DNA of 64,000 nucleotides from Candidatus Eiseniibacteriota bacterium. Lineage in GTDB: Bacteria; Eisenbacteria; RBG-16-71-46; CAZAMP01. The stretch spans positions 5,152,001 to 5,216,000 of the forward strand of contig OZ245046.1 in assembly GCA_965224245.1 (NCBI GenBank), in the 5' to 3' direction. Below, piece by piece: positions 5,057-41,828 of this stretch. The stretch's first letter is position 1. Every line of letters begins with the position of its first letter. The notes beneath the pieces are model-generated. The model saw only the letters and a program-made list of their open reading frames with translations, did no database searches and was not told the DNA's origin. Position numbers and translations under genes: made by a program.

Positions 5057-5174
5057 CGCGTGACTCCTGAGACGCGGAGTCCTCGGCGTCTGGACTCCGC
5101 GCCGGTTGTGGGCCGCGCGCGCTGACCGAGGTGTCCGGCCACCGCGCTCGCCAGAGAGCGTAGCACAACTTCCC

Positions 5175-5215: not shown

Positions 5216-5329
5216 TTTCCGAGATCCCGACGCGTGTGTTACGCTCGGCGGCGCGGGCGGACGGAGGTCCGTGATCGCCGCAAGCGATTGAACCAAAATC
5301 GATTGAAATCCAACCCAGGGAGACGTCAC

Positions 5330-7054: not shown

Positions 7055-7225
7055 GCTGGTCCCTCCTCGCTCACGGGATGCGCGGCGTGCCCCCGCACAG
7101 TAGAGTGCGGACGCGTGTCACGCAGGTGACGTCCCCGGCCGGGGACGATGATCGCCCGAACGGCCCCGGTAGGTCCAGCGGCCCGCGGCGGCGACACGCG
7201 CGCAGGCTCTCGACCCGGAGGTGCG

Positions 7226-8489
7226 GTGAACGACGTCGGGTATCTGATCATCGCCGCCGCGGTTCTCGCGTTCGCGCTCGGGGCCCGTACCCTGTCGCGA
7301 TCGGTCGTCACCGCGCCGATGGCGTTTCTCGTCGTGGGGCTCCTGCTGTCGGAATCGGGGCTCGTGCGGGGCGAAGGTGCCGAGCGCCTGCTGCACGTCC
7401 TCGCCGAGGCGACGCTGGTACTGGTGCTGTTCTCCGACGCCGCCCGGATCGACCTCCTCGCGCTCCGGCGAAAGCACGTGTGGCCGATGCGCATGCTCGT
7501 GATCGGCCTGCCGACTGGCGGTCGTCCTGGGGACGGTGGCCTTTCGCGTGCTGCTGCCGGACTGGTCGGTGTGGTCGGTGGCGCTGCTCGCCGCGATCCT
7601 GGCCCCGACGGATGCGGCCCTGGGGCAGGCCGTCATCACCAACCGCAACGTTCCCGAGCGGGTCCGGCGCGCGCTGACAGTGGAGAGCGGTCTGAACGAC
7701 GGGCTCGCGCTCCCCATCGTCTTGCTTTTCGGCTGTCTCGCGTCCGCGCACGCGGCCGGCGACCAGAACTGGCCGCTGTTCACGCTCGCACAGCTCGCGC
7801 TGGGTCCGGTGGCCGGCGTCGCGGTCGGGTACACCGGGGCCAGGCTCCTTCGAGGCGCGTCCGACCGTGGGGCGACCGATGCGGCGTACGAGGGCATCGT
7901 CGTGCTCGCGCTGGCGGCCCTGGCCTACCTCGCCGCCACGGCGATCGGCGGGAACGGCTTCATCGCGGCGTTCGCGGCCGGTCTCGCGTTCGGTCACGCA
8001 GTCGGTGGCCGGTGCCGGTTCGTCTTCGAGTTCGCCGAGGCCGAGGGCAACGCACTCGTGCTGGTCACGTTCCTGGTGCTCGGCGCGTCGCTCCTGCCCG
8101 ACGCCATCGCGCGCGCCGAGCCGGGCGTGGTCGTGGCCGGGATCGTGAGCCTGGTCGCGGTTCGACCGCTGGCGATCTGGCTGTCACTGCTCGGCACGGA
8201 CGCCGCGCCGATCACGCGACTGTTCTTCGGCTGGTTCGGTCCGCGCGGCCTGGCCTCGGCGCTCTTCGCGCTCCTGATCGTACCGCAGCTGGATGCCGAG
8301 ATGGCCGACGCCGTGCTCGCGGCGGCCGTGCTCGTGGTCGGGATCAGCGCGGTCTTGCACGGCATGACGGCGGCCCCCGCCGCGGTCTGGTACGGACGGC
8401 ACGTGCGTGGCGGCGGCGACCGCCCGGAGACGATGCCGATCGAGTCGAGCGCGATGCCGCTGCGCCACGACGCATCGCGTCGATCCTAG
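7226..8489 (+). pseudogene. Cation:proton antiporter (CPA1/NhaP-like), interrupted by a +1 frameshift near 7514 (may be an assembly error)
   Basis: The N-terminal half (LAEATLVLVLFSDA...RMLVIGLP) is in the 7148 frame. The C-terminal half (LAPTDAALGQ, VESGLNDG, GWFGPRGLAS) is in the 7536 frame. Deleting the A at 7514 restores IGLP-LAVVLGT. Confidence 0.8.
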
Positions 8490-9254: not shown

Positions 9255-9301
9255 CACCGCCTCCTGGCTCAGGCCACCGACTCCGGCTGGACCCGACCAG
9301 G

Positions 9302-9847
9302 TTACACGCTCACCCGGCCCGCGCGAAGTCCGCGAGCGCGGCACACCGGATCCAGCGCCGCACGCCAGATACGACGCTTTTCGGCGCGCGAGATGGCGGC
9401 GTGCGCGGGGCTGGTCGAGGGCAGGCGGCGATGTCGGATGTCGCGATGCGTGCTCAGTGTCGGCAACACGTGACGCCGATAGTGGGTCTCGGCCGTCGCA
9501 CCGTTGAACAGCACGTCGCTGATCGCCGGGTGGGACGCGAGGAATCCCTCGATGTCGTTCGCGGTGACGGACCCGCCGTCGATCGCCGAATCGAGGCTGC
9601 CCCGCCGCGCGCACGAGGCCAGCACGTCCCAGAGCGCGAGGCCCCCGGCCCTCACGGCGGTCACCCGGACGTCGTAGGGCGAGTCGGGGTCGATGCCGAG
9701 GACGTCACACACGATCGGCCAGAACGCGTTTCGCGGGTGGGCGTAGTACTGACCGGCCTCCAGCGAGGCCACGCCGGGCATGCTTCCCAGGATCAGCACC
9801 CGGGCGAAACGGTCGCCGATCGGGGGGAAGCTACGAACGACCGTCAT
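9302..9847 (-). CDS. UDG-superfamily DNA glycosylase (DNA-deoxyinosine glycosylase/Mug-like)
   Basis: LILGSMPGVASL, QYYAHPRNAFW, LWDV, FNG, LPSTSPA. Confidence 0.9.
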   Translation of the reverse strand: MTVVRSFPPIGDRFARVLILGSMPGVASLEAGQYYAHPRNAFWPIVCDVLGIDPDSPYDVRVTAVRAGGLALWDVLASCARRGSLDSAIDGGSVTANDIEGFLASHPAISDVLFNGATAETHYRRHVLPTLSTHRDIRHRRLPSTSPAHAAISRAEKRRIWRAALDPVCRARGLRAGRVSV

Positions 9848-10055
9848 CGCGCTCGGTGCGGGTGAGCGTTGCCACGATCATCGAGCCGACCGCCGCGAAC
9901 GTCAACGACCAGAGCGCGAGTCCGGCCCAGTTGCCGGGGGTCGAGAACAGCGATGCCAGGGACGTCGTCTCTCGATCGAGCAGTCCCAGGCCGATTGCCG
10001 CCAGCAGGCTGGTGCAGGCGACGATCACGTACCGGCGGCGACTGTGCATGGCCAT
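9831..10055 (-). CDS. Small two-TM membrane protein
   Basis: 74 aa with two hydrophobic segments. GGAG RBS. Overlaps the start of the glycosylase gene. Confidence 0.55.
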   Translation of the reverse strand: MAMHSRRRYVIVACTSLLAAIGLGLLDRETTSLASLFSTPGNWAGLALWSLTFAAVGSMIVATLTRTERDDGRS

Positions 10056-10076
10056 CTCCCGGGGACGAGCCCGACG

Positions 10077-10391
10077 CTACTGTGAGCTCTCGGTGGAGCT
10101 GTACGTGTACGACGACACCCGGCCGCCCGCGTCGAAGCTGATCTTCAGGTCCTTCGCCCGGGGCGTGCCGAAGAGCGCATACCGGTAGTGTGCATAGGTC
10201 CACGTGCGTTCGCCGTCCTCGACTCCCGTCCGCCACGGGTCGCCGAAGAGACGCTGCACGTCCGCCTGCGTCGTCTCGCCGATCTTCAACACGGTGACCG
10301 GCTCGGACGCGAAGTCGTGTCCGACGGTCGCGCAGGCGGAGAGCCCCGCGACCGCGAGCGGGAGGGCACAGCGGAGGATGCGAGGGCGCAC
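10077..10391 (-). CDS. SmpA/BamE-like lipoprotein
   Basis: Lipobox LSAC. 'LKIGETTQADVQRLFGDP...WTY...LKISFD..GRV' BamE-like pattern. GTG at 10391 after AAAGGAG. Confidence 0.75.
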   Translation of the reverse strand: MRPRILRCALPLAVAGLSACATVGHDFASEPVTVLKIGETTQADVQRLFGDPWRTGVEDGERTWTYAHYRYALFGTPRAKDLKISFDAGGRVSSYTYSSTESSQ

Positions 10392-10490
10392 ACGAGCTCC
10401 TTTCCACGATCGTGATCGGGTCCAGCCCCGGATGGCGCACGGCATGTTTGCGTCGATGCCGTGAAACCGAGGTGAGCCGTGATCCTACGC

Positions 10491-11162
10491 TCAGAGGCCG
10501 ATCGCGTCGAGGTCCAGTCCGGACTCCCGCTCCGCGAGCTCGGGTACCAGCTCGCAGAGACGCTTCCGTAGCGCCAGCCGGGCGCGGTTGACGCGACTGC
10601 GGACGGTGCCGCCCGGGATGGCCAGCACGTCGCCGACCTCCTCGTAGGAGAGCCCGCGAATGTCGCGCAGGATCAGGATCTCCCGGTGGATCGGGGGCAG
10701 GTCGTCGATCGCCCGGTGCACGAGACGAGCGGTGTCGTGCTGCTGCATCTGCCGGTCGGCGGGCACGTCGTCCTCGTTGGGCAGGTGCAGCGTGCCCGAC
10801 TCGTTGGTGCCGGTGACGGGATCGATCGGCACGCTGGAGCCCCGTCGCTTCATCGACCGGAGCTCGTTGCGCGCGATGTTCAGCGCGATGGTGTACAGCC
10901 ACGTGTAGAACTTGCCCACGCGGCGATACGTCCGGCGGTGCCGGTGCACTCGTACGAAGACGTCCTGCGCGAGGTCCTCGGCCCGGTGGCGGTCGTTGAT
11001 GACCCGGGTGATCAGCCCGACGATCTTGGCCGAGTACCGGTCGACCAGGACGCGAAACGCGTCATCGGACCCGCCGGCGCAGGCCTCCATGAGGTCCTCG
11101 TCGCTCTGGACCGAGAGCCCGGGCGGGGCGGGGGTCGGAAACGGGATGATGTTCGTCGTCAT
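10491..11162 (-). CDS. ECF sigma factor, paralog B
   Basis: AEDLAQDVFVRV, FYTWLYTIALNIARNELR, LSYEEVGDVLAIPGGTVRSRVNRAR. Closely similar to 2773..3450. Confidence 0.92.
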   Translation of the reverse strand: MTTNIIPFPTPAPPGLSVQSDEDLMEACAGGSDDAFRVLVDRYSAKIVGLITRVINDRHRAEDLAQDVFVRVHRHRRTYRRVGKFYTWLYTIALNIARNELRSMKRRGSSVPIDPVTGTNESGTLHLPNEDDVPADRQMQQHDTARLVHRAIDDLPPIHREILILRDIRGLSYEEVGDVLAIPGGTVRSRVNRARLALRKRLCELVPELAERESGLDLDAIGL

Positions 11163-11210
11163 GCTCCACGTTGCTCCTCGGTAGGGGTCGGAGTCGAGCC
11201 CCAACACTGG

Positions 11211-11239
11211 TTAGACAGCGATGCAGGGTGGAACGTTCC
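11211..11239 (-). promoter_or_regulatory. Putative ECF-type (-35 GGAAC / -10 GTCTAA) promoter upstream of paralog B
   Basis: The minus strand reads GGAAC-N18-GTCTAA about 50 nt upstream of ATG 11162, resembling RpoE-type promoters. Confidence 0.45.
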
Positions 11240-11327
11240 GGAAGATTTGGGGTACACATGCTAACTGATTTGCTCGTAATCTGTTGAATGGATCGAGGGG
11301 GCGGACCGCCCCGGAAGGAGGACGAGA

Positions 11328-11738
11328 ATGAGCGTCCAGGAACGGATCGACGCGTTCTTGAACGGTGCGCCCCACGCCGTCGTCGGTGCCTCGCGCGATC
11401 GATCCAAGTACGGCAACAAGGTGCTTCGCGTCTACATGCAGGCCGGTCGCGAGGTCTACCCGGTCAACCCGACCGGGGGCGAGATCGAGGGGCTCACCGC
11501 GTACGCGTCACTGGATGCGGTCCCCCCGCGTGTGCACGGCGTCTCGATCATCACGCCGGCGAGGGTCACCGAGAAGGTGGTCGAGACGGCCGCGGAGCTG
11601 GGTATCCAGCACGTCTGGATGCAGCCGGGGGCCGAGAGCGACGCGGCCGTGGCCAGGGCCGAGGAGCTGGGTCTCAGCGTGATCTCCGGCGGACCGTGCA
11701 TTCTGGTCGTGCTCGGGTATCGCGAGCAGCACACCTGA
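11328..11738 (+). CDS. CoA-binding protein (YccU-like)
   Basis: AVVGASRDRSKYG, VYPVNP, VWMQPGAES, GPCILV. Confidence 0.9.
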   Translation: MSVQERIDAFLNGAPHAVVGASRDRSKYGNKVLRVYMQAGREVYPVNPTGGEIEGLTAYASLDAVPPRVHGVSIITPARVTEKVVETAAELGIQHVWMQPGAESDAAVARAEELGLSVISGGPCILVVLGYREQHT

Positions 11739-11784
11739 GGCGGTCCCGACGCGCGACCGAGGTGGATCCGGCCGCGTCGGCGGC

Positions 11785-12612
11785 TCACCCCTCGATCGCG
11801 GCCTCCAGCACGGCGCGATGGCGAGCCATCCAGGCCGCGCTCCGCGTCCGCCACGTGATCGCCCAGAGTGACGACGCGTCGAGAGTCTCGGCGGTCACCG
11901 AGCCGTCGATGGCCTGCTGCGCGGCGTCCTGGATGGCGAACTCGATCATGAGCTCCACGAAGCCCGACCGATCGGCGCCGCTCAGGCCGTAGCCATCGAG
12001 GAGCAGCCGCGCCTGCCGCGCCCGACGCTCGGGCGACTCGAGCCCCTCCTTGCGCGCAACGTCGTCGTCGAAGAGCCGCGCGTTGAGCCAGCATGCCTGC
12101 GCGAGCTCCACGTCCCGGTCGACGGGCCCGGCCACCTCCCAGTCGATCAGTGCGACCGGGCAGCCGTCGCGCGCCACGATGTTCCAGGGCGCGGGGTCCC
12201 CGTGACCGACCACGCGCGCCGAGCCGCCGAGCGATCGGCCGAACCACGGGCGCCACGCGGCGTCGGGACCGGGATCGAACGTGGCGGTCGCGTCGTGGAG
12301 GCGGCGCAGCATCCGACCCACCGCGTGGATCGAGGCGTCGCTCCACGCCTTGGCGACCGTCTCCCCCTCGATGTAGTACAGCGCCTCGCACCCTCTGCCG
12401 TCGAAGCCATCGCCGACGAGACGAGGTGAGCCGGCGAATCCGGCCTCCTCGAGATGCCTCAGCAGCGCGTGGACCGAGGGTGTCCACGGGCGGACGTCCC
12501 GCAGGACGACGTCGTCTCGACGGGCGACGCGGCTGCGACCGCCGCCGTGGAGCTCGACCTCGGAGGTGTCGGGCTCGCGGCGTTCGGCTGGATTCGACAT
12601 GCGATGCTCCAT
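11785..12612 (-). CDS. Aminoglycoside phosphotransferase (APH)-like kinase
   Basis: HGDPAPWNIV and LIDWE catalytic motifs. N-terminal 'SVHALLRHLEEAGFAGSPR'. Confidence 0.8.
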   Translation of the reverse strand: MEHRMSNPAERREPDTSEVELHGGGRSRVARRDDVVLRDVRPWTPSVHALLRHLEEAGFAGSPRLVGDGFDGRGCEALYYIEGETVAKAWSDASIHAVGRMLRRLHDATATFDPGPDAAWRPWFGRSLGGSARVVGHGDPAPWNIVARDGCPVALIDWEVAGPVDRDVELAQACWLNARLFDDDVARKEGLESPERRARQARLLLDGYGLSGADRSGFVELMIEFAIQDAAQQAIDGSVTAETLDASSLWAITWRTRSAAWMARHRAVLEAAIEG

Positions 12613-14658: not shown

Positions 14659-14953
14659 GTGAAAGCGTGCTCCTCTCTGGCCCCGAGAACTCCTGGATCC
14701 ACGTGACGGGAATACTACGCTCAGTCACGAGAGCAGGTCACGTCGCGCCGAAGTTGTTGCCGTTTGAGGTCATCCCGACCGCCATCGTTCTCCGTCAGCC
14801 CCGAGTGTGATTCCGATCGTCCCGCCGCGCCTCACGATCGGAATGGGGCGCGGCCTCGCGATCGATCCTCGGCTCGCTTCCGATGCCGCGCACGTCGATC
14901 AATGTTCGATCAGGGATGGCGCGACCCAGGCGCCTCCGAGCTGGAGTGATCCC

Positions 14954-17911
14954 ATGCACACGTCTTCTGTCATTCGGGTACGGCCTTCCGGCCTCCTGGC
15001 CCTGGGGGCCCTGTTCGTCGCGGGGGTGGCGGTGGCCGGCCCCCGCCTGTCCGATCGGGCTCCGGACGACGTCCCGTCGCGGGACGTGATGGCGGCGATC
15101 TCGCGTCCGGATCCATCCGTCCTGCCTCCCCATGGATACGGGAGCCTCGTCCGTCTCTTGATGCAGAACCGGACGGACGTCCGGTCGGGGCTCCTGACCG
15201 AGGCCGAGGCGGCGGCCCGCGGAGGCACCGCGATCGCGGGGAGCCGGGCCTTTCCCGTGTTCCCGTTCCTGTACGACAACACGGGGTCCGCGCCCTTCTC
15301 GCAGGACGACCTCGAGGATCAGCTCTTCACCGGCCCCTGGCCCACGGGAACGATGAAGGAGTACTACGAGGAGGTGTCCTACGGGCTGTTCTCGGTGACC
15401 GGTCACGTGGAGGACTGGTTCACGCTGGACCACGACGACGACTACTACGAGGGCTTCAACAACGGCCTCGACGTGGACGGGAACGTCTACGAGGCGATGG
15501 TCGACATCCTCGATGACCGGGATCCGGGTCTCGACTTCGGTCTCTGGGACAACGACGGTCCGGACGGCGTGCCCAACTCCGGCGACGACGACGGCTACGT
15601 GGACTTCATCATGTTCGTGACCCCCGACCCGAGCGGCGCCTGCGGGGACAACGACAACATCTGGTCCCACACCTGGTTCCTCAGCGGGTGGGGTACCCAC
15701 TACGAGACCGACGACGCGGCCGCCGCCGCGGGGGTGGCCAACATCCGGATCGATCACTACTTCATGTCCGCCGGCATCGACTGCACGCTGCCCCGGCAGC
15801 GCGGCATCGGCACGCACTGTCACGAGTTCGGGCATGCGCTGGGGCTGCCGGACCTCTACGACACCGATGGTGGCTCCGAGGGCATCGGCGACTGGGGCCT
15901 GATGGGCAACGGCAACAACAATACCCAGGATCGTCCGGCTCACTTCACGGCGTTCCACAAGGAGCGCCTGGGATGGCTGCATTACTACGACGTGACCCAG
16001 GACGCCACGCACCTCTGCGTGCCGCCGGTGGAGACTCATCCGGCCGCGGTGCGGCTGTGGACACACGGCCGCGTGGGTGACGAGTACTTCCTGGTCGAGA
16101 ATCGCCAGCAGATCGGATTCGACGACCAGGTCCACGGCACGGGGTTCGTGATCTATCACGTGGACGAACGCGTGTACGCGGCCAATCTCCACGACAACGC
16201 CGTGAACACGGACGAGGCGCACAAGGCCGTCGACGTGGAGTGCGCCGACGCCACCACGGCCGCCCACGTGGCCGACGCCGACGACCTCGACCGGCGTGCG
16301 AACGAAGGCGACGCGGGTGACGTGTGGTGTCCGGCGACGGAGGACACGTTCGACGACACGAGCGTGCCCGACACGCGATCGTGCTCCGGCGGATCCACCG
16401 AGGTCTCCATCCAGAACATCGACGCCTGCACCGGCGTCGTGTGCGCCGACTTCAACGTGGGGAGCGCCTACGTGGCCGATCTCTGCATCCGTGATTGCGT
16501 GAGCGACGGCTGCGACGAGCTCTCACTCTGCGAAGGGTGGTGGGGGAGTCCCGACATCTGGATCGACAACGACGGCGACGGCGTCAGCGATCTTCCGGCC
16601 GACGCCCTCGAGAACGACCTCTGGTTCCGCATCCGGAACGTCGGGCCGGAGCCCCTCAGCGACGTCACCGTGAGCCTCTACTACGGGGACCCGGCGATGG
16701 GTCAGCTCTGGCCGTCTTTCGGTACCTTGATCGAGTCCCGATCGGTGACGTCGATCGACGTGGGTGAGGTGGTGGAGGACTACGTTCCGTTCGTCTATCC
16801 AGCACCGCCGGTCTACGTGGATCACTACTGCATCGGCGCGGTGGTGACACACGAGCTCGACCCGCAGAACAGCGAGTACCCGCCGAACGACAACAACGTG
16901 GCGCAGGTGAACCACCAGGTGCTCGTGAACCGAGCAGGCGGAAGCCTGCTGGCCGCCGGCTGCGGTCCCTTCGTCGAGAAGTCGCGCATCCTGCTGCACG
17001 CCCCGGACGACTACGCGCACGCGGTCGTACGGCTCGGTACGCCGCCGACGTTCGCCGACTACTCGATCCCGCCGGACTGGACCGTGAGCTTCGACCCGGG
17101 ACCTTACGACATCTACGGGACACCCGTGCCGTTCAACCTGACGGTGGAGTCCACGGAAACGACCCACCGTCAGATGGCGCGCATCCCGCTCACGCTGTGG
17201 GATCTGCAGCAGGGCCGCGCGATCGGTGGCGTTCTGATGAACTACGTGATCGACTGCTCCGCACCGAAGCAGGTCGGGGGCCGCGGCGCCGAGTGGCTCT
17301 CTCCGCACGGTGATTATCTCATCGGACCCACCGTGCTCGTGGAGTGGGATCGAGTCACCTCGGACGAGGACGGAGAGCCCGAGATCATCACGCACTACGA
17401 GGTGCAACGCTCGGATGATCACGGTACGCCGTGGACGACCGTGGAGCGCGTGGCGGTGGACGCGGAGCTGGAGATGCCGTGGTTTCAGTGGTACGACGAT
17501 CTCACGAAGACCTGCGACGTCGAGTACTACTATCGTGTACGCGGCGTGGACGCGGCCGGGTCGGTCGGCGCTTACTCCGCGACCATGACGCTGGCTTGCG
17601 AGCCCTTGGACGTGGCGGACACGCCCGGCGCGGTCGGATGGCAGCTCGACGCCGGCACGCCGAACCCGTTCCGGGGGCCGACGGAGATCCGGTACGGGGT
17701 TCCGGTGGCAGGGCCGATCCGACTGGACGTCTTCGACGTGCACGGGCGCCGCGTGCGATCCCTGGTGAACGGCGTCCGGGAGGTCGGTGAGTTCGCCGTG
17801 ACGTGGGACGGCCGCGACGACGGCGGTCGGGACGTGGAGCCGGGGATCTACTTCCATCGTCTCCGCGCGGGCGAGACGACCCTGACCCGGAAGACGACCC
17901 GGGTCGAGTGA
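14954..17911 (+). CDS. Secreted M6 (immune inhibitor A-like) metalloprotease with CARDB-like and FlgD-Ig C-terminal domains
   Basis: Signal peptide, YYEEVSYG, IWSH, HEFGHALGLPDLYD zinc motif, EYFLVENRQ, C-terminal PNPF...WDGRDD.G...PGIYF. Confidence 0.9.
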   Translation: MHTSSVIRVRPSGLLALGALFVAGVAVAGPRLSDRAPDDVPSRDVMAAISRPDPSVLPPHGYGSLVRLLMQNRTDVRSGLLTEAEAAARGGTAIAGSRAFPVFPFLYDNTGSAPFSQDDLEDQLFTGPWPTGTMKEYYEEVSYGLFSVTGHVEDWFTLDHDDDYYEGFNNGLDVDGNVYEAMVDILDDRDPGLDFGLWDNDGPDGVPNSGDDDGYVDFIMFVTPDPSGACGDNDNIWSHTWFLSGWGTHYETDDAAAAAGVANIRIDHYFMSAGIDCTLPRQRGIGTHCHEFGHALGLPDLYDTDGGSEGIGDWGLMGNGNNNTQDRPAHFTAFHKERLGWLHYYDVTQDATHLCVPPVETHPAAVRLWTHGRVGDEYFLVENRQQIGFDDQVHGTGFVIYHVDERVYAANLHDNAVNTDEAHKAVDVECADATTAAHVADADDLDRRANEGDAGDVWCPATEDTFDDTSVPDTRSCSGGSTEVSIQNIDACTGVVCADFNVGSAYVADLCIRDCVSDGCDELSLCEGWWGSPDIWIDNDGDGVSDLPADALENDLWFRIRNVGPEPLSDVTVSLYYGDPAMGQLWPSFGTLIESRSVTSIDVGEVVEDYVPFVYPAPPVYVDHYCIGAVVTHELDPQNSEYPPNDNNVAQVNHQVLVNRAGGSLLAAGCGPFVEKSRILLHAPDDYAHAVVRLGTPPTFADYSIPPDWTVSFDPGPYDIYGTPVPFNLTVESTETTHRQMARIPLTLWDLQQGRAIGGVLMNYVIDCSAPKQVGGRGAEWLSPHGDYLIGPTVLVEWDRVTSDEDGEPEIITHYEVQRSDDHGTPWTTVERVAVDAELEMPWFQWYDDLTKTCDVEYYYRVRGVDAAGSVGAYSATMTLACEPLDVADTPGAVGWQLDAGTPNPFRGPTEIRYGVPVAGPIRLDVFDVHGRRVRSLVNGVREVGEFAVTWDGRDDGGRDVEPGIYFHRLRAGETTLTRKTTRVE

Positions 17912-22201: not shown

Positions 22202-23000
22202 CGCGAATGCCCTCGTCGGACGCCGCGGATGACGGCACCGTCACGTCGGCATCCGGCACCACGGGCCGGAATAGTGGGCTCTGGTAGAGGCCAGTGCGCC
22301 AGAGGCGATACTCGAGGGAGGTTCGCAACACGCCGATCCCATATCGACATGCGCGGCGCAGTCCGATCGAGCTCGCCTCGGGAAAGTACTTGGTCGGACA
22401 CGAGATCTCCCCCACGCGGAAGCCGAAGGCGAGGCACTGCGTCAACATCTGATTGTCGAACACGAAGTCGTCGGAGTTGCGCTCGAGCGGCAGCGTCTCC
22501 AGGACGCGGCGCGAGAACGCACGATACCCCGTGTGGAACTCGGAGAGCTTCGACGCCAGGAGGACGTTTTGCACGAGCGTGAGCGCCCGGTTCGAGACCA
22601 GCTTGTACAGCGGCATGCCGCCACTTCTGGCCGTCGCGCCGAGGATGCGAGAGCCGATCACGACGTCGTACACGTCGGAGGCGACCATCCCCGCCATCGG
22701 CGTCACGAGCCGTGGCTCATACTGATAGTCGGGGTGCAGCATCACGACGATGTCGGCACCCAGCCCGAGCGCCTCCCGGTAGCACGTCTTCTGATTCGCA
22801 CCGTACCCTCTGTTCTCCGGGTGTACTATCGTATGAATGCCGAGATGGCGAGCGATGGCCGCGGTGTCGTCGTCGCTTCCATCGTCTACCAGGAGACAGT
22901 GGTCGACGATGTCGTGAGGGATGGCGCGGTGCGTCTTCTCGAGCGTCCGTGCCGCCCGAAAGGCGGGCAAGACGACGACGATTCGCTTGGACGCGAGCAT
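22194..23000 (-). CDS. GT2 glycosyltransferase (polyprenol-phosphate sugar synthase-like)
   Basis: [42 protein letters not shown] at 23000. Confidence 0.9.
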
Positions 23001-23182
23001 TGGTGATCCAGATCCTGGAGACGGGACGTCGCGCGACGGCGGAGGGCCGCGATCTCGAACCCGAGGATGATACCAGAGTACTTCAACCGGGGGACGGCTT
23101 CGGCGAACCGAGGCGCGTCTCGCCGTACGCACGCCCTGCGACGAGCCGACCGCGGAGCACTCGCAGTCGAGGATCGACACCC

Positions 23183-24196
23183 ATGAAGCCACGTTCGAAG
23201 AGATCTCACGCGGCGACGCTGGCGGCGTTGGTCGGGCTGGTGGCCGGCTGCGGGTCGCTCACGGGGCGCCACGACGTCGACGACGAGCTGGCACGTGCCG
23301 GGCCCACGACGATCCGGATCCTGGCCACCGCCCGCACCGATGGCGAGACCGATCCCTGTCCGTGACGGTCGGCGCCCGGACAGGGCGGGCTGGCCCGGCG
23401 GGCCACGCTTCTCGACTCGTTGCGGGCAGAGGATCCGGATCTGCTCGTGGTCGACGCCGGCGACTTCTGCGAGCACGATGGGCCGCTCGCGGTGGAGAAG
23501 AGCGCCTTCATCCTCAGCATGATGCAGGAGATGGGCTACGACGCCGTGGCACTGGGTCCGAGGGAGCTGGCGATCGCCGGCGACCTGTCGCACGCGATCG
23601 AGGATACCCGTGGCATCGTTCTCTCGAACGCGACCGACGCCATCGATCGATCACTCTCGCCTGAGCGCCACGTCGTCAAGCAAGTCGGAGGCACGAGAGT
23701 GGGCGTCTTTGCGCTCGTGCAGCCCGAGGCCGCCGGCGGCTCGGCCGCCGACGCCCTCCCCGAGCTCGTCGCCGCCGCCGAGCGCACGTTGCGAGATCTC
23801 CGCGCGGAGCGAGCCGGCTTCACGGTGCTGCTCTGTCAGCTCGATGCCGTGGTGACGGACACGCTTCTCAGACGGATCACAGGCGTGGACCTGGTCGTGA
23901 TGGGAGACACGCCCGTTGCACGCATTCGGGACCGTATCGAGAGCACCGTGCCCCTGGTCGTGTACCCGGGAGGAAAGGGACGCTCAGTGACGATCGTCGA
24001 CGTGAGCGTCGACGCGTCCGGTACCGTCGTCGACGGCCAGGCCCGGATGGTCCTCCTGAACGCGCACATTCCGCTGGATCCGCGAGTCCACGCGCGGGTC
24101 TCGGTCATGAACGCCCGCATCCGGGAGGAGCGGATGCGGATCTTCCGGGAGAGCCGGGGGCTGGGCGACGGTAGAGAGGTGTCGGACGATCCGTGA
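23183..24196 (+). CDS. Probable selenoprotein: UshA/5'-nucleotidase-like lipoprotein with a C-P-U motif (in-frame TGA 23363-23365)
   Basis: ATG 23183 after GAGGA, lipobox VAGC. Reading through TGA gives ...[43 protein letters not shown]..., continuous with ORF 23420..24196 in the same frame (337 aa). Confidence 0.8.
23367..23395 (+). other. Candidate bacterial SECIS hairpin
   Basis: GGTCGG-CGCCC-[GGACA]-GGGCG-gg-CTGGCC begins 1 nt after the TGA. The apical loop starts with G. Confidence 0.5.
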
Positions 24197-24335
24197 GTCC
24201 GGCGACCCGCGAGGGCTCGTGGGTCGGTGGCGGGACCGCCTCGATCCGTCTGATGACGGATACCGGTCGGCAGAGGGCGTCCCTCCGGGTGCGGGGTCTC
24301 GCACCCGGAGGTGACGTGACGCGAGGATCAGCTCG

Positions 24336-25973
24336 TCACTTGCCCGGGCACTGGCTGACCACGCTGGAGTCGATGCCCTTGTTGCCGTAGTTCTTGTCGA
24401 AGTACGCCGAGAACTCCGCCGCGAGCTTCTTCGCTCGCGCATCGTACGCGGACGGGTCCTTCCACGTGTTCCGCGGCGCCAGCATCGTCGAGTCGATACC
24501 CGGCACCTCGTTGGGAACGTTCACGTGGAAGAGCGGATCCTCGGTGTACGAGACCTTCTCCAGCGTGCCGTCGAGAGCCGCATGGACGAGGCTCCGCGTC
24601 AGGTTGATGTCCATCCGTGAGCCCTCACCGTACGGGCCGCCGCTCCAGCCGGTGTTGACCAGGTACACGTTGGTCTTGTGCTCCTTCATCTTCCTGCCCA
24701 GGAGCGATGCGTAGTCGTCGGGGTTGCGCGGCATGAACGGCGCGCCGAAGAAACGCGAGAACGCGGTCTGCGGCTCGGTGACGCCGCGTTCGGTGCCCGC
24801 CAGCTTCGAGGTGTAGCCCATCATGAACCACAGCATTGCCTGCGCGGCGTTCAGCTTGGCCACCGGCGGCAGCACGCCGTTCGCGTCGGCGGTCAGGAAG
24901 ATGATGTTCGACGGATGCGTCGAGATCGGCGGCGTCTTGATGTGCTCGAGGAAGCTCAGCGGATACGACACGCGTGAGTTCTCGGTCAGGCGGCCGTCGT
25001 CGACGTCGAAGCTGCCGTCGGCCAGCATGAAGCAGTTCTCGATCAGCGCGCCGTGGGCGAGAGGGTCGGACTTGTGGAACGTGGCGTTCCAGATCTCCGG
25101 CTCCTTGTCTTGACGCAGGTTGATCAGCTTCGCGTAGCAGCCGTTCTCGAAGTTCGCGATGCCGTCGTCGCTCCAGCCGTGCTCGTCGTCGCCGAGGAGC
25201 AAGCGCCGCGGATCGGCCGAGAGCGTCGTCTTGCCGGTGCCCGAGAGGCCGAGGAAGAGTGCACAGTCGCCCGCTTGACCCTCGTTCGCCGAGCAGTGGA
25301 GCGGCAGAATGCCCTGGTCGGGAAGCAGGAAGTTCATGACCGTGAACATCAGCTTCTTGACGCTGCCGGCGTACGCGTTGCCGTACACGAGCCCCAGACG
25401 CCGATCGAAGTCCATCGCGATCGCCATGTTGGAGCGAAGCCGTCCCTGGTACGCGTCGAAGTTGATGCGGTCGTACGGGAGCACCAGGAGCTTGAAGCCT
25501 CGGCTCGCGTAGACGCTGGTCTCGATCTTGTCCGGGATGGGACGGAACATGTTGTCGGTGAAGAGCATCGTGGCCGCCCGATCGGAGACCGTGCGGATCG
25601 GGAGCGCGTACGCAGGATCGGCGCCGACGGTGCGGTCGGTGTAGTACACCGTCTTCTTCATGGCCAGGATCTTCAGCGCGTCGTTCCAGAGGTCGTCGAA
25701 CGTCGACGGCTCCATCGGAATGCAGTTGGGAGAGTCCCAGTCGATCTTGCCTTCGCTCTCGGAGTGGCGAACGATGAACGTGTCCTTCGGGCTGCGGCCC
25801 GTGCAATCAGACGGCGTGAACGTCGCGATCGCACCTCCGGCCGACGCGAACCCTTCCTTGTTGTCCAGGACGTGGCGGATCAGGTTGCGCCGGGGGAGGT
25901 TCGCGTTGACCCCGATGTGGTGTTCGAGCACGCGATCGAGGCCCTTGCCGAGTGTGTCTACCGTGTGTGACAT
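24336..25973 (-). CDS. pckA: Phosphoenolpyruvate carboxykinase (ATP)
   Basis: TGRSPKD, YAGSVKK, LHCSAN, GLSGTGKTTLS (P-loop), GDDEHGW, ENGCYAK, LVNTGWSGG. Confidence 0.95.
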   Translation of the reverse strand: MSHTVDTLGKGLDRVLEHHIGVNANLPRRNLIRHVLDNKEGFASAGGAIATFTPSDCTGRSPKDTFIVRHSESEGKIDWDSPNCIPMEPSTFDDLWNDALKILAMKKTVYYTDRTVGADPAYALPIRTVSDRAATMLFTDNMFRPIPDKIETSVYASRGFKLLVLPYDRINFDAYQGRLRSNMAIAMDFDRRLGLVYGNAYAGSVKKLMFTVMNFLLPDQGILPLHCSANEGQAGDCALFLGLSGTGKTTLSADPRRLLLGDDEHGWSDDGIANFENGCYAKLINLRQDKEPEIWNATFHKSDPLAHGALIENCFMLADGSFDVDDGRLTENSRVSYPLSFLEHIKTPPISTHPSNIIFLTADANGVLPPVAKLNAAQAMLWFMMGYTSKLAGTERGVTEPQTAFSRFFGAPFMPRNPDDYASLLGRKMKEHKTNVYLVNTGWSGGPYGEGSRMDINLTRSLVHAALDGTLEKVSYTEDPLFHVNVPNEVPGIDSTMLAPRNTWKDPSAYDARAKKLAAEFSAYFDKNYGNKGIDSSVVSQCPGK

Positions 25974-36145: not shown

Positions 36146-39100
36146 TCACTTCAGCAGCAGCATCGATCGCGTCAGCCGCTCGTGCTCGGTATGCAGCTCG
36201 TAGTAGTACATGCCGCTGGCCGCCGCGTCGCCGGAACGATCCCGGCCATCCCAGACGACCATGCGTTTGCCGGCGAGGACGGTCTCGTCGACGAGTCGGA
36301 TGACCAGACGTCCCGACACGTCGAACACGGACAGTCGAACGTGCATCGTGCGAGGCACCACGAAGCCGATCCGTGTCGAGGGGTTGAACGGGTTCGGTGC
36401 GTTCGGCAACAGCTGCGGCCGCGCGGACACCGTCGGTGCCGACGTGTCGACGCCGACGATGAAATCGTCTCCGACGCGGACGTCGTCGACGTACCAGCCC
36501 TCCCCCGGGGTCAGTGTCTCGTCGGCGGCGAACACGAACCGACAGTGCAGCGTGTCGTCGAGGAACGCCGCCAGGGCGAACCGCACCGGCTCGAAGTCGT
36601 GCGAGCCGCTGAACAGACCGGTGCCGGCGCCGAGCGGCCCCGTGTAGTCGGCGGGCGTCGAGTACGGGTACCCACCCACTGGGTTCAGGATCGACCAGGA
36701 CTGCCCGTCGTCGGTGCTCACCTCGACCCGACCCCCGTGCGTGGCCTCGGAATCGAGACCGTTCGCGGCATCGATGAAGTGCTGGAACACCAGGTACTGA
36801 TCGGGCTGCACCACGACCGGCGGCATGCGCAGGATGGAGTAGTTCAGCGGGGAGTACGGCCCGGTGCCGAAGCCGCCGCACTTGAACGACGAGTCGCCCT
36901 CGGCGGTCGCGTTCCGGGCGCCGGACATGTGCCACTCGTCGAGACGGTCCACGTCGCCGGCCTCGTGCGTCCAAGCGCCCTGGCCGAACTCGAAATCATC
37001 GTCGAACCCCGCCAGAAGCTCGAGATCGATCGTCAGCGTGCTGTCCGACAGCACGCCCACGCCGCGGACGTGACGCGGACCGAACCCGGCTCCCGCCACG
37101 CGAACGTCGTAGGTGGCCACCGGTACCGATCCCAGGAGATAGGCGCCCTCGGTGTTCGTCGTGTCCTCCACCGCGATCGAGGTCAGGCGGACGTCGATCC
37201 CCGACGTCGGCGACCCGAAGGTCGTGATCGTGCCCGCGACGGCGCCGAGCGGCAGCGCCCGGAGACCGACCGGCTGGTAGAGCATCTCGTCGGTCGCGAT
37301 GACGACGTCGAGTGTATCGGGGATGTCGCCGGCGACGTCGTAGGCGATCTGATGGACGGTTCCCGCCGAGATGAAGAGCTCGTACGACCCATCGGCATCG
37401 CTCATGACCTCCAGCCCGCTGTTCAGGTCGATCACGCGTCCGACGAGCGGACCGGCGTCGGCCGCGTCGACGACCTCCACGCGCAGGTTCCGGAATCCGA
37501 TCTGCCCCCCGACGCCGCCCGTGGATCGGGCCTGCGCGATCAGGTACGCCTCGGTCAGGTCCTCGGCCGGGAACGAGCCACCGAGCGCGGTGCCGTTGTC
37601 GGTGCCGTACGCGATGGCGGCTCCGTAGGGGCCGCCGTTGACCGACAGCGAGACCATGCCGCCCGTGGTATCGCTGGGTACGAGCCGGAGATCGAAGCTG
37701 AACGTCGGAGGCGCGAGCAGCGCCGGACCGAGCGCCCCGGCGATCGCCGCGTCGAAGTCGCCGGCGGCGGCCACGTGCCCCGTGTCGCTGAGCGCGTACC
37801 GGACGAACACCGCCTGGTCGAACAGGTCCGACGGGTCGCCGGTGATGATGAGCGCCGAGTCGCGCTGGGCGGCCGAGACGAGCCCGAACTCGACGACGGT
37901 GGAGTCGACGTCGGACACGTCGAAGAGATCGACCGTCCCGCTCACGTACACGGTGTCGGCGGCCTGGGCGTCGACGGGCACGCTCGCCAGGCGATGGTCG
38001 TGGACCGTGCCGTCCGGATCCACGACGAGCGTGTCGTTCAGGAGCGTGACCACGCCCGTGACCGAACGTAGCCGACCGGCGAGAGTGGCCTGCGGGAGCT
38101 TGATCAGACCCATCGGCTGATAAAGCGTGTCGCGATGGGCCAGGTCGACGTTCGCGAACTCGGTGGGGAAGCCATCTCGCTCGTACGAGATCGTGAGCTC
38201 GAGAAGACCCGGCACCTCGAGCGAGTAGTAGCCGTCGGCGTCGGCCAGCGTGGTCGCGAGCGCGCCGAGGGTCTGGATGCGCGCCGGAAGGCCCTCACCG
38301 TACCCCGGGCGCACGGCCTCGGCCCGCACGTTGCGGAACGTCACCGACCCCCCGGCTCCGCCGACTCCGCGAAGCTGGGCGACGAGGAAGCTCGACGTCA
38401 GGTCCTCGACCGGGAACGAGCCACCGAGGGCCGTGCCGTTGTCGACGCCGTAGGTGATGGGATCACCGTACGCGCCGCCGTCGATGGCCAGCGCCGCGGT
38501 GCCTCCACCACCCGGGGCGGGGATGAGCCGGAGATCGAACGTGAACGTCGGCGAGGCCGGTTGTCCGACGCCGACCCCTCCCGGGAGCGCGGCGTCGAAG
38601 TCGCCGGGAGCCGCGACGCGTCCCGTGTCGGTGAGCGCGTACCTCACGAACACGGCCTGATCGAACATGTCCGACGGTGTGCCCGTGATCACCAGCGCCG
38701 AGTCGCGCTGAGCCTCGGTGATGAGCCCGAACTCCACGACGGTGGAATCGAGGTCGGCCACGTCGTGCAGCGTCACGTTGCCCCGCACGTACACCGTGTC
38801 CGGTGACTGGGCGTCGAACGGCACGTCGCCGATCACGTAGTCGTACGCCGACCCGCCGTCGGGATCCACGCTCAACGTGCTGTCCGGCAGCGAGACCGCG
38901 GCCGAGACGGCGCGCACGCGCCCGCTGATCACCGCGCGGGGACGCTGCTCGAGAGCGAACGTGACCGGCAGCGTCTCCTCGTAGTCGACGCTCACGTGCA
39001 GCGTGTCGGGAAAGCACTGCGGAGCCGACACGATCAGCGTGCGCGGCTCGTACGCCTGGATGGGGATGCTCAGATCCCCGTTCCCGTCGGCCAGAAACGT

Positions 39101-41446
39101 CTCGCTCGTCTCGAACACGTCGACCGTTGCCTGGAGCGAGTGGCCCCAGCCGGGATCGATCGTGCCCGCGCGCACGTTGCGGAAGACCACCGAGGCCTTC
39201 TCGCCGTCCGCCGGGGTCCGGAGCTGCGCGAGGAGGTATGCCTCGCTCAGGTCCTCGGGCGGGTACGACCCGCCGAGCGCGGTTCCGTTGTTGACGCCGT
39301 AGGGATGGCCGGCGCCGTACGGGCCGCCGTCGATGGACAGATAGGCCATGCCGCCGGCCGGACCGTCCGGAACGAGGCGCAACGAGAACGAGAACGCGCC
39401 CTCGACGGGCACCGCCTCGCCCGCGCCGCCGGTGATGAAGGCGGAGTAGTCGCCCGGGCTGGCCACGCGTCCCGAGTCGCTGACCGCGACGCGCATGAAA
39501 ACGGATTGATCGAACATGCGAGACGCGATGCCGGTGGTGACCAGCGCCGAGTCGCGCGCGGCCCGGGTGATGAGGCCGAACTCGACGACCGCGGTGTCCA
39601 CGCGCGTCGCGCTGTTGAGCAGGATCTCGCCGGTCACGTAGGCCTCGCCGGTGTCCTGAGCGTCGATGGGGTCGGTCGAGATGCGGTAGTCGTAGAGCGT
39701 CCCCAGGGCCGGGTCGACGGCGAGGACGGCGTCAGGCAGCTTGGTCATCTCGGTCAGCGCGCGCGTGGGGCCGGCCACGGTGCCGGTGATGGCGCCGGTG
39801 GTGATCAGCGCCTCGTACGCGTTCACGCGGCCGTATCCGTAGTAGATGTCGAAGCCCGGAGTGTCCTCGGCCGGATCGCCCACCTGGTCCTCGGCCGAGA
39901 AGCGCAGCACGTCCAGGACCTGCGCGTTGGTGAGCGTCGGGGCGACCGACCACACCAGCGCGGCCACGCCGGTCACGATGGGGGCGGCGAAGGACGTTCC
40001 GGAGCGGATCATGTAGTCACCGGGGTCGGTCCCGAACGAGCCCGAGATGTCGGCCACCTGGATCAGGATGCCGGGCGCCACGACGTCGAGTTCGGGTCCG
40101 AAGTTCGACGCGGCGCCGTAGACCACCTCGCACGTCTCGTCGTCGGACTGTGCGCGCGTGTCGCAGGGCGTGCTCATGCCCACCGCGACCGTCGTCGAGT
40201 AGGCCGCCGGGTACTCGATGAACGGGTCACCTCCGTTGCCGGCCGACGCGACCGTGAGGCAGCCCGCGTTGGCGGCGTTCTCGCAAGCGGTGCGGATGCC
40301 GGGATCGTCCACGTCGGCCTTCCACGAGAGGTTGATCACGACGTTGTCGAACGCACCCTTCCAGCTCGCGGAGTAGTTGATCGCGTCGGCGCGCGAGGCG
40401 AGCCCGCTGGCCGCGAAGCTGACACGCAGCGGCAGGCCGGTGCATTCCGGTGAGACTCCGGTCATCCCGAGACCGTTGTCGGCGTGGGCCAGCGGCAGGC
40501 TCGCGACCGACGTGCCGTGCCAGTCGCCGAAGAGGTTGAACGGTCCCCCCGTGGAGTCGGGATTGTCGAACGACCAGTCGTGGCCCGGCGGTCGTTCGAG
40601 GAACGCGCCCTCCAGGTCGGGGTGGGTGACCTCGCATCCCTCGTCCACGATCGCGATCAGCACGAGCGAGTCGCCGCGCGTCATCTCCCAGGCCGGCAGG
40701 TACTCGATGTCGGCGCCGACGGTGCCGCCGAACTGGCCGGTGTTCTCGAGCGCCCACTGGTCGGGGAACAGCGGATCGTCGGGGGCGACGAGCCGATCAT
40801 CCTCGCTGCCGAGGACGTCGGGACACGCGAAGTCGACGTCGTCGCGATCGTTGAAGCGAGAGACCGCGCCGAACACGTCCATCGTGGCGGGCAAGCCGAC
40901 CCGGTAGTACCCGGGGGTCCAGAAGTCGTGAAGGACGGCGCATCCGAGGGCGGCGAGGCGCGTGCGTGCGTCGGCATCCGAGACCGACCGATCGAACTGC
41001 ACGATGATCTGACCGGGTGCGGCATGCACGGTCTTGCCGCGATCGGTGACCAGGGCCACGTGAACGCGCGTCGACCGCCCGGCGTCCCGCGACGCCGCAC
41101 CGCGAATGCCGGAGGCGACGTCGGACGCGCCGCGGCGCTCGGTCGGGCTCGCGTTCGTGCGGTAGGCGCCGAGCCGCATGCCTTCCACGTACGGACGGAC
41201 CGGGGTCAGGCCCCACGTCTCGGCGAACGCGGCCCGGTCGGCGTCGGTCCACTCGCCGTCGAAGCGCACGACGATCTCGTCGGAGGAGGGGGCGAAGCGG
41301 TGCTCGATCCGGAACCGGGCATCGGTGTACGTCAACGCGCGCTCGGCGGTGACGGCGGCGACCACGCCGGTGACGACGCCGGCGATCGCGCCCACGCAGA
41401 GGATCGTTCGAAAGGTGTTGCCGAGGGACGCGCGAGCGTTTCGCAT
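36146..41446 (-). CDS. Large secreted S8 subtilase with three internal ~190-aa repeats and a FlgD-Ig C-terminal domain
   Basis: Catalytic triad IVDEG / WHGT / SGTSFAAP, plus VINLSW, GYGRVNA. Late 'GWYVDDV' domain and C-terminal PNPFNPST...WDGRD. Start codon uncertain. Confidence 0.9.
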   Translation of the reverse strand: MRNARASLGNTFRTILCVGAIAGVVTGVVAAVTAERALTYTDARFRIEHRFAPSSDEIVVRFDGEWTDADRAAFAETWGLTPVRPYVEGMRLGAYRTNASPTERRGASDVASGIRGAASRDAGRSTRVHVALVTDRGKTVHAAPGQIIVQFDRSVSDADARTRLAALGCAVLHDFWTPGYYRVGLPATMDVFGAVSRFNDRDDVDFACPDVLGSEDDRLVAPDDPLFPDQWALENTGQFGGTVGADIEYLPAWEMTRGDSLVLIAIVDEGCEVTHPDLEGAFLERPPGHDWSFDNPDSTGGPFNLFGDWHGTSVASLPLAHADNGLGMTGVSPECTGLPLRVSFAASGLASRADAINYSASWKGAFDNVVINLSWKADVDDPGIRTACENAANAGCLTVASAGNGGDPFIEYPAAYSTTVAVGMSTPCDTRAQSDDETCEVVYGAASNFGPELDVVAPGILIQVADISGSFGTDPGDYMIRSGTSFAAPIVTGVAALVWSVAPTLTNAQVLDVLRFSAEDQVGDPAEDTPGFDIYYGYGRVNAYEALITTGAITGTVAGPTRALTEMTKLPDAVLAVDPALGTLYDYRISTDPIDAQDTGEAYVTGEILLNSATRVDTAVVEFGLITRAARDSALVTTGIASRMFDQSVFMRVAVSDSGRVASPGDYSAFITGGAGEAVPVEGAFSFSLRLVPDGPAGGMAYLSIDGGPYGAGHPYGVNNGTALGGSYPPEDLSEAYLLAQLRTPADGEKASVVFRNVRAGTIDPGWGHSLQATVDVFETSETFLADGNGDLSIPIQAYEPRTLIVSAPQCFPDTLHVSVDYEETLPVTFALEQRPRAVISGRVRAVSAAVSLPDSTLSVDPDGGSAYDYVIGDVPFDAQSPDTVYVRGNVTLHDVADLDSTVVEFGLITEAQRDSALVITGTPSDMFDQAVFVRYALTDTGRVAAPGDFDAALPGGVGVGQPASPTFTFDLRLIPAPGGGGTAALAIDGGAYGDPITYGVDNGTALGGSFPVEDLTSSFLVAQLRGVGGAGGSVTFRNVRAEAVRPGYGEGLPARIQTLGALATTLADADGYYSLEVPGLLELTISYERDGFPTEFANVDLAHRDTLYQPMGLIKLPQATLAGRLRSVTGVVTLLNDTLVVDPDGTVHDHRLASVPVDAQAADTVYVSGTVDLFDVSDVDSTVVEFGLVSAAQRDSALIITGDPSDLFDQAVFVRYALSDTGHVAAAGDFDAAIAGALGPALLAPPTFSFDLRLVPSDTTGGMVSLSVNGGPYGAAIAYGTDNGTALGGSFPAEDLTEAYLIAQARSTGGVGGQIGFRNLRVEVVDAADAGPLVGRVIDLNSGLEVMSDADGSYELFISAGTVHQIAYDVAGDIPDTLDVVIATDEMLYQPVGLRALPLGAVAGTITTFGSPTSGIDVRLTSIAVEDTTNTEGAYLLGSVPVATYDVRVAGAGFGPRHVRGVGVLSDSTLTIDLELLAGFDDDFEFGQGAWTHEAGDVDRLDEWHMSGARNATAEGDSSFKCGGFGTGPYSPLNYSILRMPPVVVQPDQYLVFQHFIDAANGLDSEATHGGRVEVSTDDGQSWSILNPVGGYPYSTPADYTGPLGAGTGLFSGSHDFEPVRFALAAFLDDTLHCRFVFAADETLTPGEGWYVDDVRVGDDFIVGVDTSAPTVSARPQLLPNAPNPFNPSTRIGFVVPRTMHVRLSVFDVSGRLVIRLVDETVLAGKRMVVWDGRDRSGDAAASGMYYYELHTEHERLTRSMLLLK
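37475..39739 (-). repeat. Three tandem intragenic repeats (~850-nt period) in the S8 protease
   Basis: Units at ~39739-39165, ~38890-38318 and ~38042-37475 share P.DAQ..., VVEFGL, RDSAL.(T/I)TG, FDQ.VF, NGTALGGS(Y/F)P.EDL and FRN(V/L)R. Confidence 0.9.
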
Positions 41447-41828
41447 CTGGGGCCGTGGCCTCCTCCGGACGTCACGCAGTGCTGCCGGCGCGCCGAAGCA
41501 CGCCGAACATCGGTGCAAACCCAGTCATGTGCTCGGTAGAGGAGCGGTGGACCGGTCGGGCGGGCGCGCCACGTCCACTATGCCTCTGAGGGACCACCGA
41601 ACGAGCGAGCGACCAGACGATGACCTGCTCAACGTTGCGAATGATATCACGAGCGGCGATCGGGACTCAAACGCGCCCGGGTTTCCAAGTCGTTCCCCGG
41701 CAACGAATTGGCCGAGCCGAGCCGAAGCCCGTTCTCATCCCGGGGACGGCAAGGCCCGGATCGACCGCGTTTACGCCGCTCGCCCCGACCCGTAAGATCG
41801 GCCGGACGCCGCGCCCGAGGGAGATTCC

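Follow-up and report, generated by a model that had tools for sequence, protein, structure and literature searches.

An unannotated haem-less UshA-like lipoprotein gene with a probable selenocysteine codon in Candidatus Eiseniibacteriota

Introduction

A TGA codon interrupts the reading frame of a predicted UshA-like lipoprotein gene in a Candidatus Eiseniibacteriota bacterium, which raises the question of whether this codon ends a gene or is read as selenocysteine (Sec), and what a Cys/Sec pair could do on the scaffold of a 5'-nucleotidase. The gene lies at positions 23183–24196 of a 64,000-nucleotide stretch of DNA, hereafter called the window (assembly GCA_965224245.1, contig OZ245046.1, positions 5,152,001 to 5,216,000 of the forward strand), and had been proposed as a hidden selenoprotein in an earlier note made from the sequence alone. 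We conclude that the internal TGA most likely encodes selenocysteine, judging from the comparison with homologous genes set out below, and that the gene adds an unannotated, haem-less C-P-U member to a family listed since 2008, without representing a novel type of system. That UshA-like proteins with CxC or CxU motifs are already known, as the earlier note had stated, is borne out by the literature: 'COG0737, UshA-like, CxU' is listed among the previously characterised selenoprotein families of the 2008 Global Ocean Sampling study, where it comprises 76 Sec and 92 Cys sequences (PMC2398784), and the UshA-like family is also tabulated in two reviews (PMC9312934; PMC13188914), the second of which lists NF041198 with the motif CxU and NF049981 with the motif CxxU. 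In the searched text of these three papers, with subscription papers and supplements lying outside the search, the family is tabulated or named in passing and no function is assigned to it.

Results and Discussion

A single reading frame across an internal TGA

The gene can be read in a single frame from an ATG at 23183, preceded at a distance of 11 nt by a GAGGA that we noted by eye, through the in-frame TGA at 23363–23365 to a final TGA stop at 24194–24196. Every peptide quoted in the earlier note was found in this one frame, continuous across the internal TGA, and the GC content at third codon positions (GC3) is 0.8–0.9 on either side of that codon, in a window with an overall GC content of ~69%. 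Homology crosses the codon as well: the NCBIfam model NF041198 aligns to residues 40–299 of the readthrough product, and many phmmer matches begin at query residue 36–44. In the public protein sets the locus is split into two entries, P0020 (60 aa, residues 1–60) and P0002 (249 aa, residues 90–337), and the candidate had indeed been missed by gene calling. As standard gene calling cuts this gene into two meaningless pieces, both the selenoproteome and the lipoproteome of the organism would be under-counted. A genome-wide reassignment of TGA was considered and rejected: TGA is the ordinary stop codon in 24 of the 34 Pfam-supported genes of the window, which excludes a reassigned code.

Cysteine and TGA occupy the same column in relatives

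An exhaustive phmmer search returned 3147 representatives at E ≤1e-3, of which 376 lie at E ≤1e-10. The family alignment comprises 117 rows, the window's own row being included with its TGA read as Cys. Counting only rows that are not gapped at the column in question, Cys occupies column 59 in 95 of 97 rows and column 61, the position of the TGA, in 95 of 96, so that the CxU motif of the earlier note does line up with a C-x-C pair in its homologs. The residue between the two Cys columns is Gly in 63 of 97 rows; because Pro does not occur at this middle position in any of 110 representatives with a recognisable CxC, the C-P-U of the window gene is an unusual variant of the motif among the sequences compared. 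In addition, 20 of the 117 aligned relatives begin just past the TGA column, mostly at L/M-ARRAT, which is the expected product of gene callers meeting a Sec codon.

A scan of species-representative genomes at the DNA level, using the pattern [LM]ARRAT[LF][IL]DS from a 6-row alignment, yielded 12 loci, with the window's own genome not among them. Five of these (L001, L003, L004, L009 and L010) carry an in-frame TGA at exactly the same column, reading P-C-G-U, four (L002, L006, L007 and L012) have TGC or TGT at this position, and the other three (L005, L008 and L011) are canonical HTNDxHS nucleotidase-like genes without CxC. When read through, L003 and L004 score 282.6 and 360.5 bits on NF041198, both above the cut-off of 275. 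Two of the marks by which a bacterial selenoprotein gene is recognised are found here: an in-frame UGA at the column in which homologs have Cys, and UGA-bearing homologs in other organisms. The C-x-C motif itself is on the loop that links strand 1 to helix 1 in the 5'-nucleotidase-type metallophosphatase fold.

A hairpin in the L-A-R-R-A codons of the Sec-form genes

The bacterial selenocysteine insertion sequence (bSECIS) model given in the text of PMC13188914 calls for an apical loop of 3–9 nt, an upper stem of 4–16 bp, a G in the first two loop positions and a distance of 16–37 nt from the UGA. With its loop 31 nt past the TGA and an upper stem of 5–6 bp, the hairpin at 23388–23409, which is present in the predicted folds of the window sequence, agrees in silico with each point of that model as described there. 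Its sequence follows from the codon choice: in the window gene and in L001, L003, L009 and L010 the L-A-R-R-A codons read (C/T)TG GCC CGG (C/A)GG GCC, which gives a GGCCC / GG(C/A) / GGGCC hairpin above a short lower stem. A hairpin of this type is found in these four of the five other Sec loci and in none of the seven non-Sec loci (four Cys-form and three canonical), where the same amino acids are specified by other synonymous codons. The comparison, which rests on six Sec sequences with L009 and L010 near-identical, shows at the level of codons a hairpin that is kept by synonymous codon choice in the predicted Sec-form genes only.

The earlier note had instead placed an 11-bp hairpin directly after the TGA. 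This structure can be drawn at 23367–23395 within the minimum-energy fold, but its loop begins only 12 nt past the TGA, outside the 16–37 nt range of the model as given in PMC13188914, and it is absent from the other Sec loci: the shared hairpin is the one at 23388–23409. The earlier note had called for a SECIS search. With Rfam, no family passed the gathering thresholds anywhere in the window, and at E values up to 10 on 23300–23500 there were only chance-level matches; the recurring hairpin just described came from the comparison of related genes. Folding energy was rejected as evidence for a SECIS, being uninformative in DNA of 69% GC.

A 5'-nucleotidase fold that has lost its metal site

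The fold assigned in the earlier note, that of the N-terminal domain of UshA and other 5'-nucleotidases, is supported alike by profile matches, structure prediction and structure search. An AlphaFold2 (AF2) model built on the family alignment has a mean predicted local distance difference test score (pLDDT) of 87.8, with block means of 96 and 94 for residues 51–70, and a predicted template modelling score (pTM) of 0.84. Foldseek places it with the N-terminal metallophosphatase domains of CD73, the Thermus 5'-nucleotidase (2z1a), UshA and YfkN at a probability of 1.00, with query TM-scores (TMq) of 0.63–0.70; for CD73, the Thermus enzyme and UshA the E values range from 1e-20 to 1e-16. The profile of the 117 relatives matches 2z1a (E 4.5e-54), CD73, UshA (1ush, E 4.8e-42) and SoxB (E 1.8e-34). 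The Pfam Metallophos model PF00149 reaches 13 bits on the window protein, under its cut-off of 21.5, and Pfam on the readthrough product found no PF02872, the C-terminal domain of 5'-nucleotidases: the protein ends at residue 337, in line with the earlier note, which had seen no such domain.

Whilst sharing the fold, the window protein differs from 5'-nucleotidases such as UshA and CD73 in lacking the dimetal ligands, the catalytic His and the C-terminal nucleotide-binding domain, and in having gained C-x-U. With the 5'-nucleotidase-like genes L005, L008 and L011 as canonical references, motif I (HTNDxHS) has become ATARTDG (D to R51, H to D53), motif III (GNHD) reads GPRE (N to P126, catalytic H to R127), motif IV (LSHLG) reads LCQLD (H to Q219) and motif V (GGHTH) is represented by MGDTP (H to D242, H to P244). 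Of the eight canonical metallophosphatase residues, only D94, the GD aspartate, survives. Thus, the metal site is as degenerate as the earlier note had described it, but this is a trait of the whole family and not of the window gene alone: the 95 CxC rows hold only 0–4 of the 8 canonical residues, and the His columns are often occupied by Arg or Lys, with Arg at the motif III (GNH) His column in 38 of 117 rows and at the motif I His column in 20 of 97. From these counts, the family as a whole has given up the dimetal centre while fixing C-x-C. Some residues of the old site are still common: D91 is found in 105 of 117 rows, the GD aspartate in 59, the motif IV His in 54 and the first motif V His in 56.

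Family, architecture and relatives

The best NCBIfam match of the window protein is NF041198, 'UshA-like (seleno)protein' (UshA_like_PCGU), with 81.4 bits over profile positions 20–290 of 519. The two have in common the N-terminal fold, the C-x-U/C column followed by GGLARRAT and the character of a lipoprotein or secreted protein, and the members L003 and L004 have TGA at the same column; the window protein differs in its score, in the absence of a tetrahaem c554-like domain and in the replacement of Gly by Pro between Cys and Sec, such that the P-C-G-U/C motif of the family reads P-C-P-U with Cys and Sec at the right columns. It resembles NF049981, 'UshA-like (seleno)protein family 2', in its short architecture (about 260 profile positions) and is homologous to it over positions 2–224, yet scores 59 bits against a cut-off of 140 and has a CxU motif as opposed to the CxxU listed for that family in the table of PMC13188914. 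Weaker NCBIfam matches are to SoxB and to multifunctional nucleotidases. The thiosulfohydrolase SoxB (TIGR04486; PDB 2wdc) belongs to the same superfamily, is periplasmic and acts in sulfur redox metabolism, but retains a dimanganese site and has no C-x-C; at 40 bits, where the cut-off is 550, the window protein is not claimed here as a member.

In many relatives, the long C-terminal helix is followed by a further domain, which carries four CxxCH motifs and which both Pfam and NCBIfam call cytochrome c554-like. The four motifs are present in L001–L004, L006, L007 and L012, and the tetrahaem domain corresponds to positions 360–518 of the NF041198 profile. The window protein, which has no CxxCH, stops exactly where this domain would start, and the missing domain places it below both NCBIfam cut-offs. 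Among the 148 top representatives, a rough regular-expression count gave 85 short CxC forms and 19 fused ones, with a further 12 short and 8 fused forms that are N-truncated, after six false positives were removed by eye. Thirteen full-length short forms all score 86.7–152.5 bits on NF041198, under its cut-off. By these counts, haem-less short forms are common and make up a large group that escapes the NCBIfam cut-offs. As a separate observation, the representatives P0018 and P0022 (about 1200 aa) each contain two separate stretches that match the query.

A quick maximum-likelihood tree was computed from 95 rows over the domain only (columns for query residues 70–312), comprising the window protein, the 12 locus proteins and those of P0019–P0109 with 230–520 residues; later, longer and shorter representatives were excluded. 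In this tree the partners of the window protein are P0026 and P0035, which are short forms with truncated N-termini (Shimodaira–Hasegawa-like approximate likelihood ratio test, SH-aLRT, 99). The sister group of these three (support 93) consists of seven cytochrome-fused rows, namely L001, a confirmed Sec form, and six whose gene calls start past the CxC column. The backbone of the tree is poorly resolved.

The N-terminus of the window protein reads as a lipoprotein signal, in agreement with the VAGC that the earlier note had pointed out: residues 1–9 are rich in K and R and are followed by a hydrophobic core and V-A-G-C23, which by reading fits the lipobox [LVI][ASTVI][GAS]C. An [AS]-G-C lipobox is also seen in the relatives L002, L006, L009, L010 and L012.

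Proposed function and alternative explanations

The best joint explanation of these findings, and one that we hold to be probable, is a single gene for a periplasmic lipoprotein whose internal UGA is decoded as selenocysteine and whose C59 and U61 form a redox pair on a former phosphatase scaffold. SelB bound to Sec-tRNA would recognise the hairpin and Sec would be inserted at position 61; the product would then be exported via the Sec translocon of the secretory pathway and lipidated at Cys23. With seven of the eight canonical metal or catalytic residues lost and no nucleotide-binding C-terminal domain, the scaffold would no longer act as a phosphoesterase. Instead, C59 and U61 could serve as a redox-active thiol/selenol pair, passing through a selenenylsulfide cycle, at or near the rim of the old active site in the loop after old motif I. 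Given the fusion of many relatives to a tetrahaem cytochrome c554-like domain, the family most likely couples its C-x-U/C site to haem electron transfer; this fusion is new evidence for the repurposing towards redox chemistry or metal binding that the earlier note had suggested. Electron exchange with c-type cytochromes would take place in cis in the relatives and in trans in the window protein, the short form of which may rely on a separate cytochrome or thiol partner. For the window protein itself, a redox or metal-binding function of the site is what we infer. If the function were solved, it would reveal what a phosphatase scaffold is used for once its metals have been swapped for a Cys/Sec pair, and the handles for such experiments are the family-wide decay of the dimetal site, the tetrahaem fusions, the SECIS hairpin written into the LARRA codons and the haem-less short form below the cut-offs.

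Several observations weigh against such a Sec-containing redox protein. The window protein falls far below both NCBIfam cut-offs (275 and 140 bits). The Sec locus L004 does not have the shared hairpin and shows a different one, of 9 bp with a GUCU loop and nearer its TGA; the shared hairpin displays no compensatory changes or covariation; and its fold energy is not beyond that of shuffled GC-rich sequence (z = -1.74 for 60 nt, -0.47 for 45 nt). The four Cys loci stand for only about two lineages. Within the 64-kb window, ARAGORN and Pfam on 37 + 8 open reading frames (ORFs) revealed no tRNA-Sec, selA, selB or selD, and no second selenoprotein gene was found there among the 29 of 82 TGA-joined ORF candidates scanned with Pfam or in a by-eye survey of Cys-adjacent TGA codons. 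Finally, Pfam on 65 ORFs around nine homolog loci, which share only lineage-level synteny, gave no conserved neighbour gene that would indicate a pathway.

The main rival accepts the selenoprotein and differs in what the pair does: C59 and U61 would be ligands of a new metal centre to which remaining acidic residues, D91 and D94 for instance, also contribute, and no redox cycling would take place. Sec is known as a ligand of Mo/W in formate dehydrogenase and of Ni in [NiFeSe] hydrogenase, the scaffold is an old metal-binding pocket in which D91 and the GD aspartate are still common and the motif IV and first motif V His are kept in about half of the family, and the haem-domain fusions would fit a metallo-redox enzyme equally well. 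Both of those His are, however, gone in the window protein (Q219 and D242), and the frequent Arg or Lys at the ligand columns, with the Arg counts given above, resembles the replacement of a cation and not a new metal site; we therefore regard a new metal centre as unlikely. Another rival is a hydrolytic function: the protein would still be a phosphoesterase or nucleotidase, its metal site being reduced or unconventional, and C-x-U would be no more than a structural selenenylsulfide. The fold does match 5'-nucleotidases, and the profile alignment pairs the second Cys of CxC with a loop Cys of snake-venom 5'-nucleotidase, which we take to be disulfide-bonded in CD73-type enzymes. Nevertheless, with one of eight canonical residues kept, Arg in place of the catalytic His of GNHE, a sub-threshold Pfam Metallophos score (13 vs 21.5 bits), no substrate-binding C-terminal domain and haem fusions in the relatives that hydrolysis leaves unexplained, there is very little to recommend it; to our knowledge, Sec is moreover costly and rarely kept for a purely structural bond.

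That the TGA is a real stop seems to us just as remote. The locus would in this case be a gene that has decayed or been split, with a lipopeptide of 60 residues and at most a cytoplasmic fragment of 249–258 residues as its products, or the TGA would be a sequencing error for TGC or TGT. Whilst the public gene calls do give two proteins (P0020 and P0002), and an apparently frameshifted Na+/H+ exchanger gene indicates that errors or decay occur in this window, the stop falls exactly on the Cys column at which five other genomes carry TGA, the Sec-type hairpin codons are present and every one of the nearest relatives is either a Sec form or truncated; furthermore, GC3 and homology are undisturbed on both sides, and the downstream half, although it belongs to an exported family, lacks a signal peptide. 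A more specific version of the Sec-containing protein can also be imagined, in which the window protein, P0026 and P0035 form a free-standing haem-less Sec clade whose old phosphate pocket, lined by Arg (R51 and R127) where metal-binding residues used to be, would accommodate an oxyanion or a chalcogen compound (thiosulfate, polysulfide, selenite or arsenate) for reduction or transfer by C-P-U. We think this improbable; if true, a metallophosphatase fold would have been turned into a metal-free periplasmic chalcogen/oxyanion reductase, in analogy to ArsC. The ArsC arsenate reductases reuse a phosphatase scaffold, of the low-molecular-weight tyrosine phosphatase-type fold, for Cys-based oxyanion reduction; this is an analogy only, as the folds are unrelated.

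Table 1 Features of the UshA-like (seleno)lipoprotein gene; positions are those of the window
Feature	Position	Strand	Basis
Readthrough gene, UshA-like (seleno)lipoprotein, 337 residues, short form without cytochrome domain	23183..24196	+	Translation, GC3, NF041198 match, AF2 model, Foldseek
Lipoprotein signal peptide: basic n-region, hydrophobic core, lipobox L-V-A-G-C with Cys23	23183..23251	+	Read from sequence
Former dimetal-site positions R51, D53, D94 (kept), P126, R127, Q219, D242, P244	23333..23914	+	Alignment with L005, L008, L011 and column counts
Codons of C59-P60-U61, TGA 23363-23365 taken as selenocysteine	23357..23365	+	Cys columns in relatives, TGA at the same column in 5 loci
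Alternative hairpin of the earlier note: 11 bp, GG bulge, loop GGACA; overlaps 5' arm of conserved hairpin	23367..23395	+	Drawn by hand, inside minimum-energy fold
SECIS-like hairpin within codons for G-L-A-R-R-A-T; upper stem 23392-23396/23400-23404 (GGCCC/GGGCC), apical loop GGC 23397-23399	23388..23409	+	Own folds and comparison
Terminal TGA stop; relatives run on into cytochrome c554-like domain at the same point	24194..24196	+	Translation and comparison with relatives

Genomic context

Upstream of the gene lie a divergent glycosyltransferase family 2 (GT2) gene and membrane glycosyl- or lipid-modifying genes, and downstream a convergent phosphoenolpyruvate (PEP) carboxykinase gene. ARAGORN detected no tRNA of any kind in the window, and there is no cytochrome gene in it. 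In-frame-TGA scans of the window gave 82 candidates at the loosest setting, and none of the 29 that were scanned with Pfam had a domain spanning its TGA; at 17 sites a TGA lies within 3 residues of a Cys, and by eye only the one at 23363 stands in a protein-like context. A 'first' hidden selenoprotein, as implied by the title of the earlier note, was not found in these window scans. A promoter and terminator scan of 22950–24400 returned nothing. Between the selenoprotein gene and the convergent PEP carboxykinase gene, a perfect 12-bp GC-rich inverted repeat with a 6-nt loop and no T-run is present at 24282–24311; it may be a bidirectional terminator and was not called by the consensus terminator scan.

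Around the related loci, a Cys/Met-metabolism pyridoxal phosphate (PLP) enzyme is encoded upstream in both L006 and L007. Further large ORFs with a cytochrome c554-like domain adjoin the UshA-like genes in L001 (4673–6139, +) and L007 (3207–6002, +), and may be tandem paralogs or partner cytochromes. On the Latescibacterota chromosome of L004, an AhpC/TSA peroxiredoxin gene (5285–5779, +) precedes the Sec-form gene, and ccmE, ccmF and ccmH, for cytochrome c maturation, are located a few kb past it (9289–12274, +).

Three other features of the window were recorded. The Na+/H+ exchanger gene (7083–8489, +) is apparently frameshifted with a break near 7490–7510, as the frame that encodes its N-terminal part (MIARTAP...VIGLPT) differs from that of the Pfam-matched rest (profile positions 86–375), which starts at 7503; either the gene is a pseudogene or the assembly is in error. 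At 53153–57852 (-), directly downstream of a gene for an extracytoplasmic function (ECF)-type sigma factor, a Ser/Thr kinase of 1209 residues with an AAA domain and tetratricopeptide (TPR) repeats is encoded, with a lower GC content of about 0.65. A FlgD Ig-like domain forms the C-terminus of five large secreted proteins, among them an M6 peptidase and an S8 subtilase (3737–5974, -; 14768–17908, +; 36149–41524, -; 43011–46580, +; 61909–63963, +); this shared ending, which is also found in a neighbour of the Eisenbacteria locus L006, suggests a C-terminal sorting or anchoring tag in this organism.

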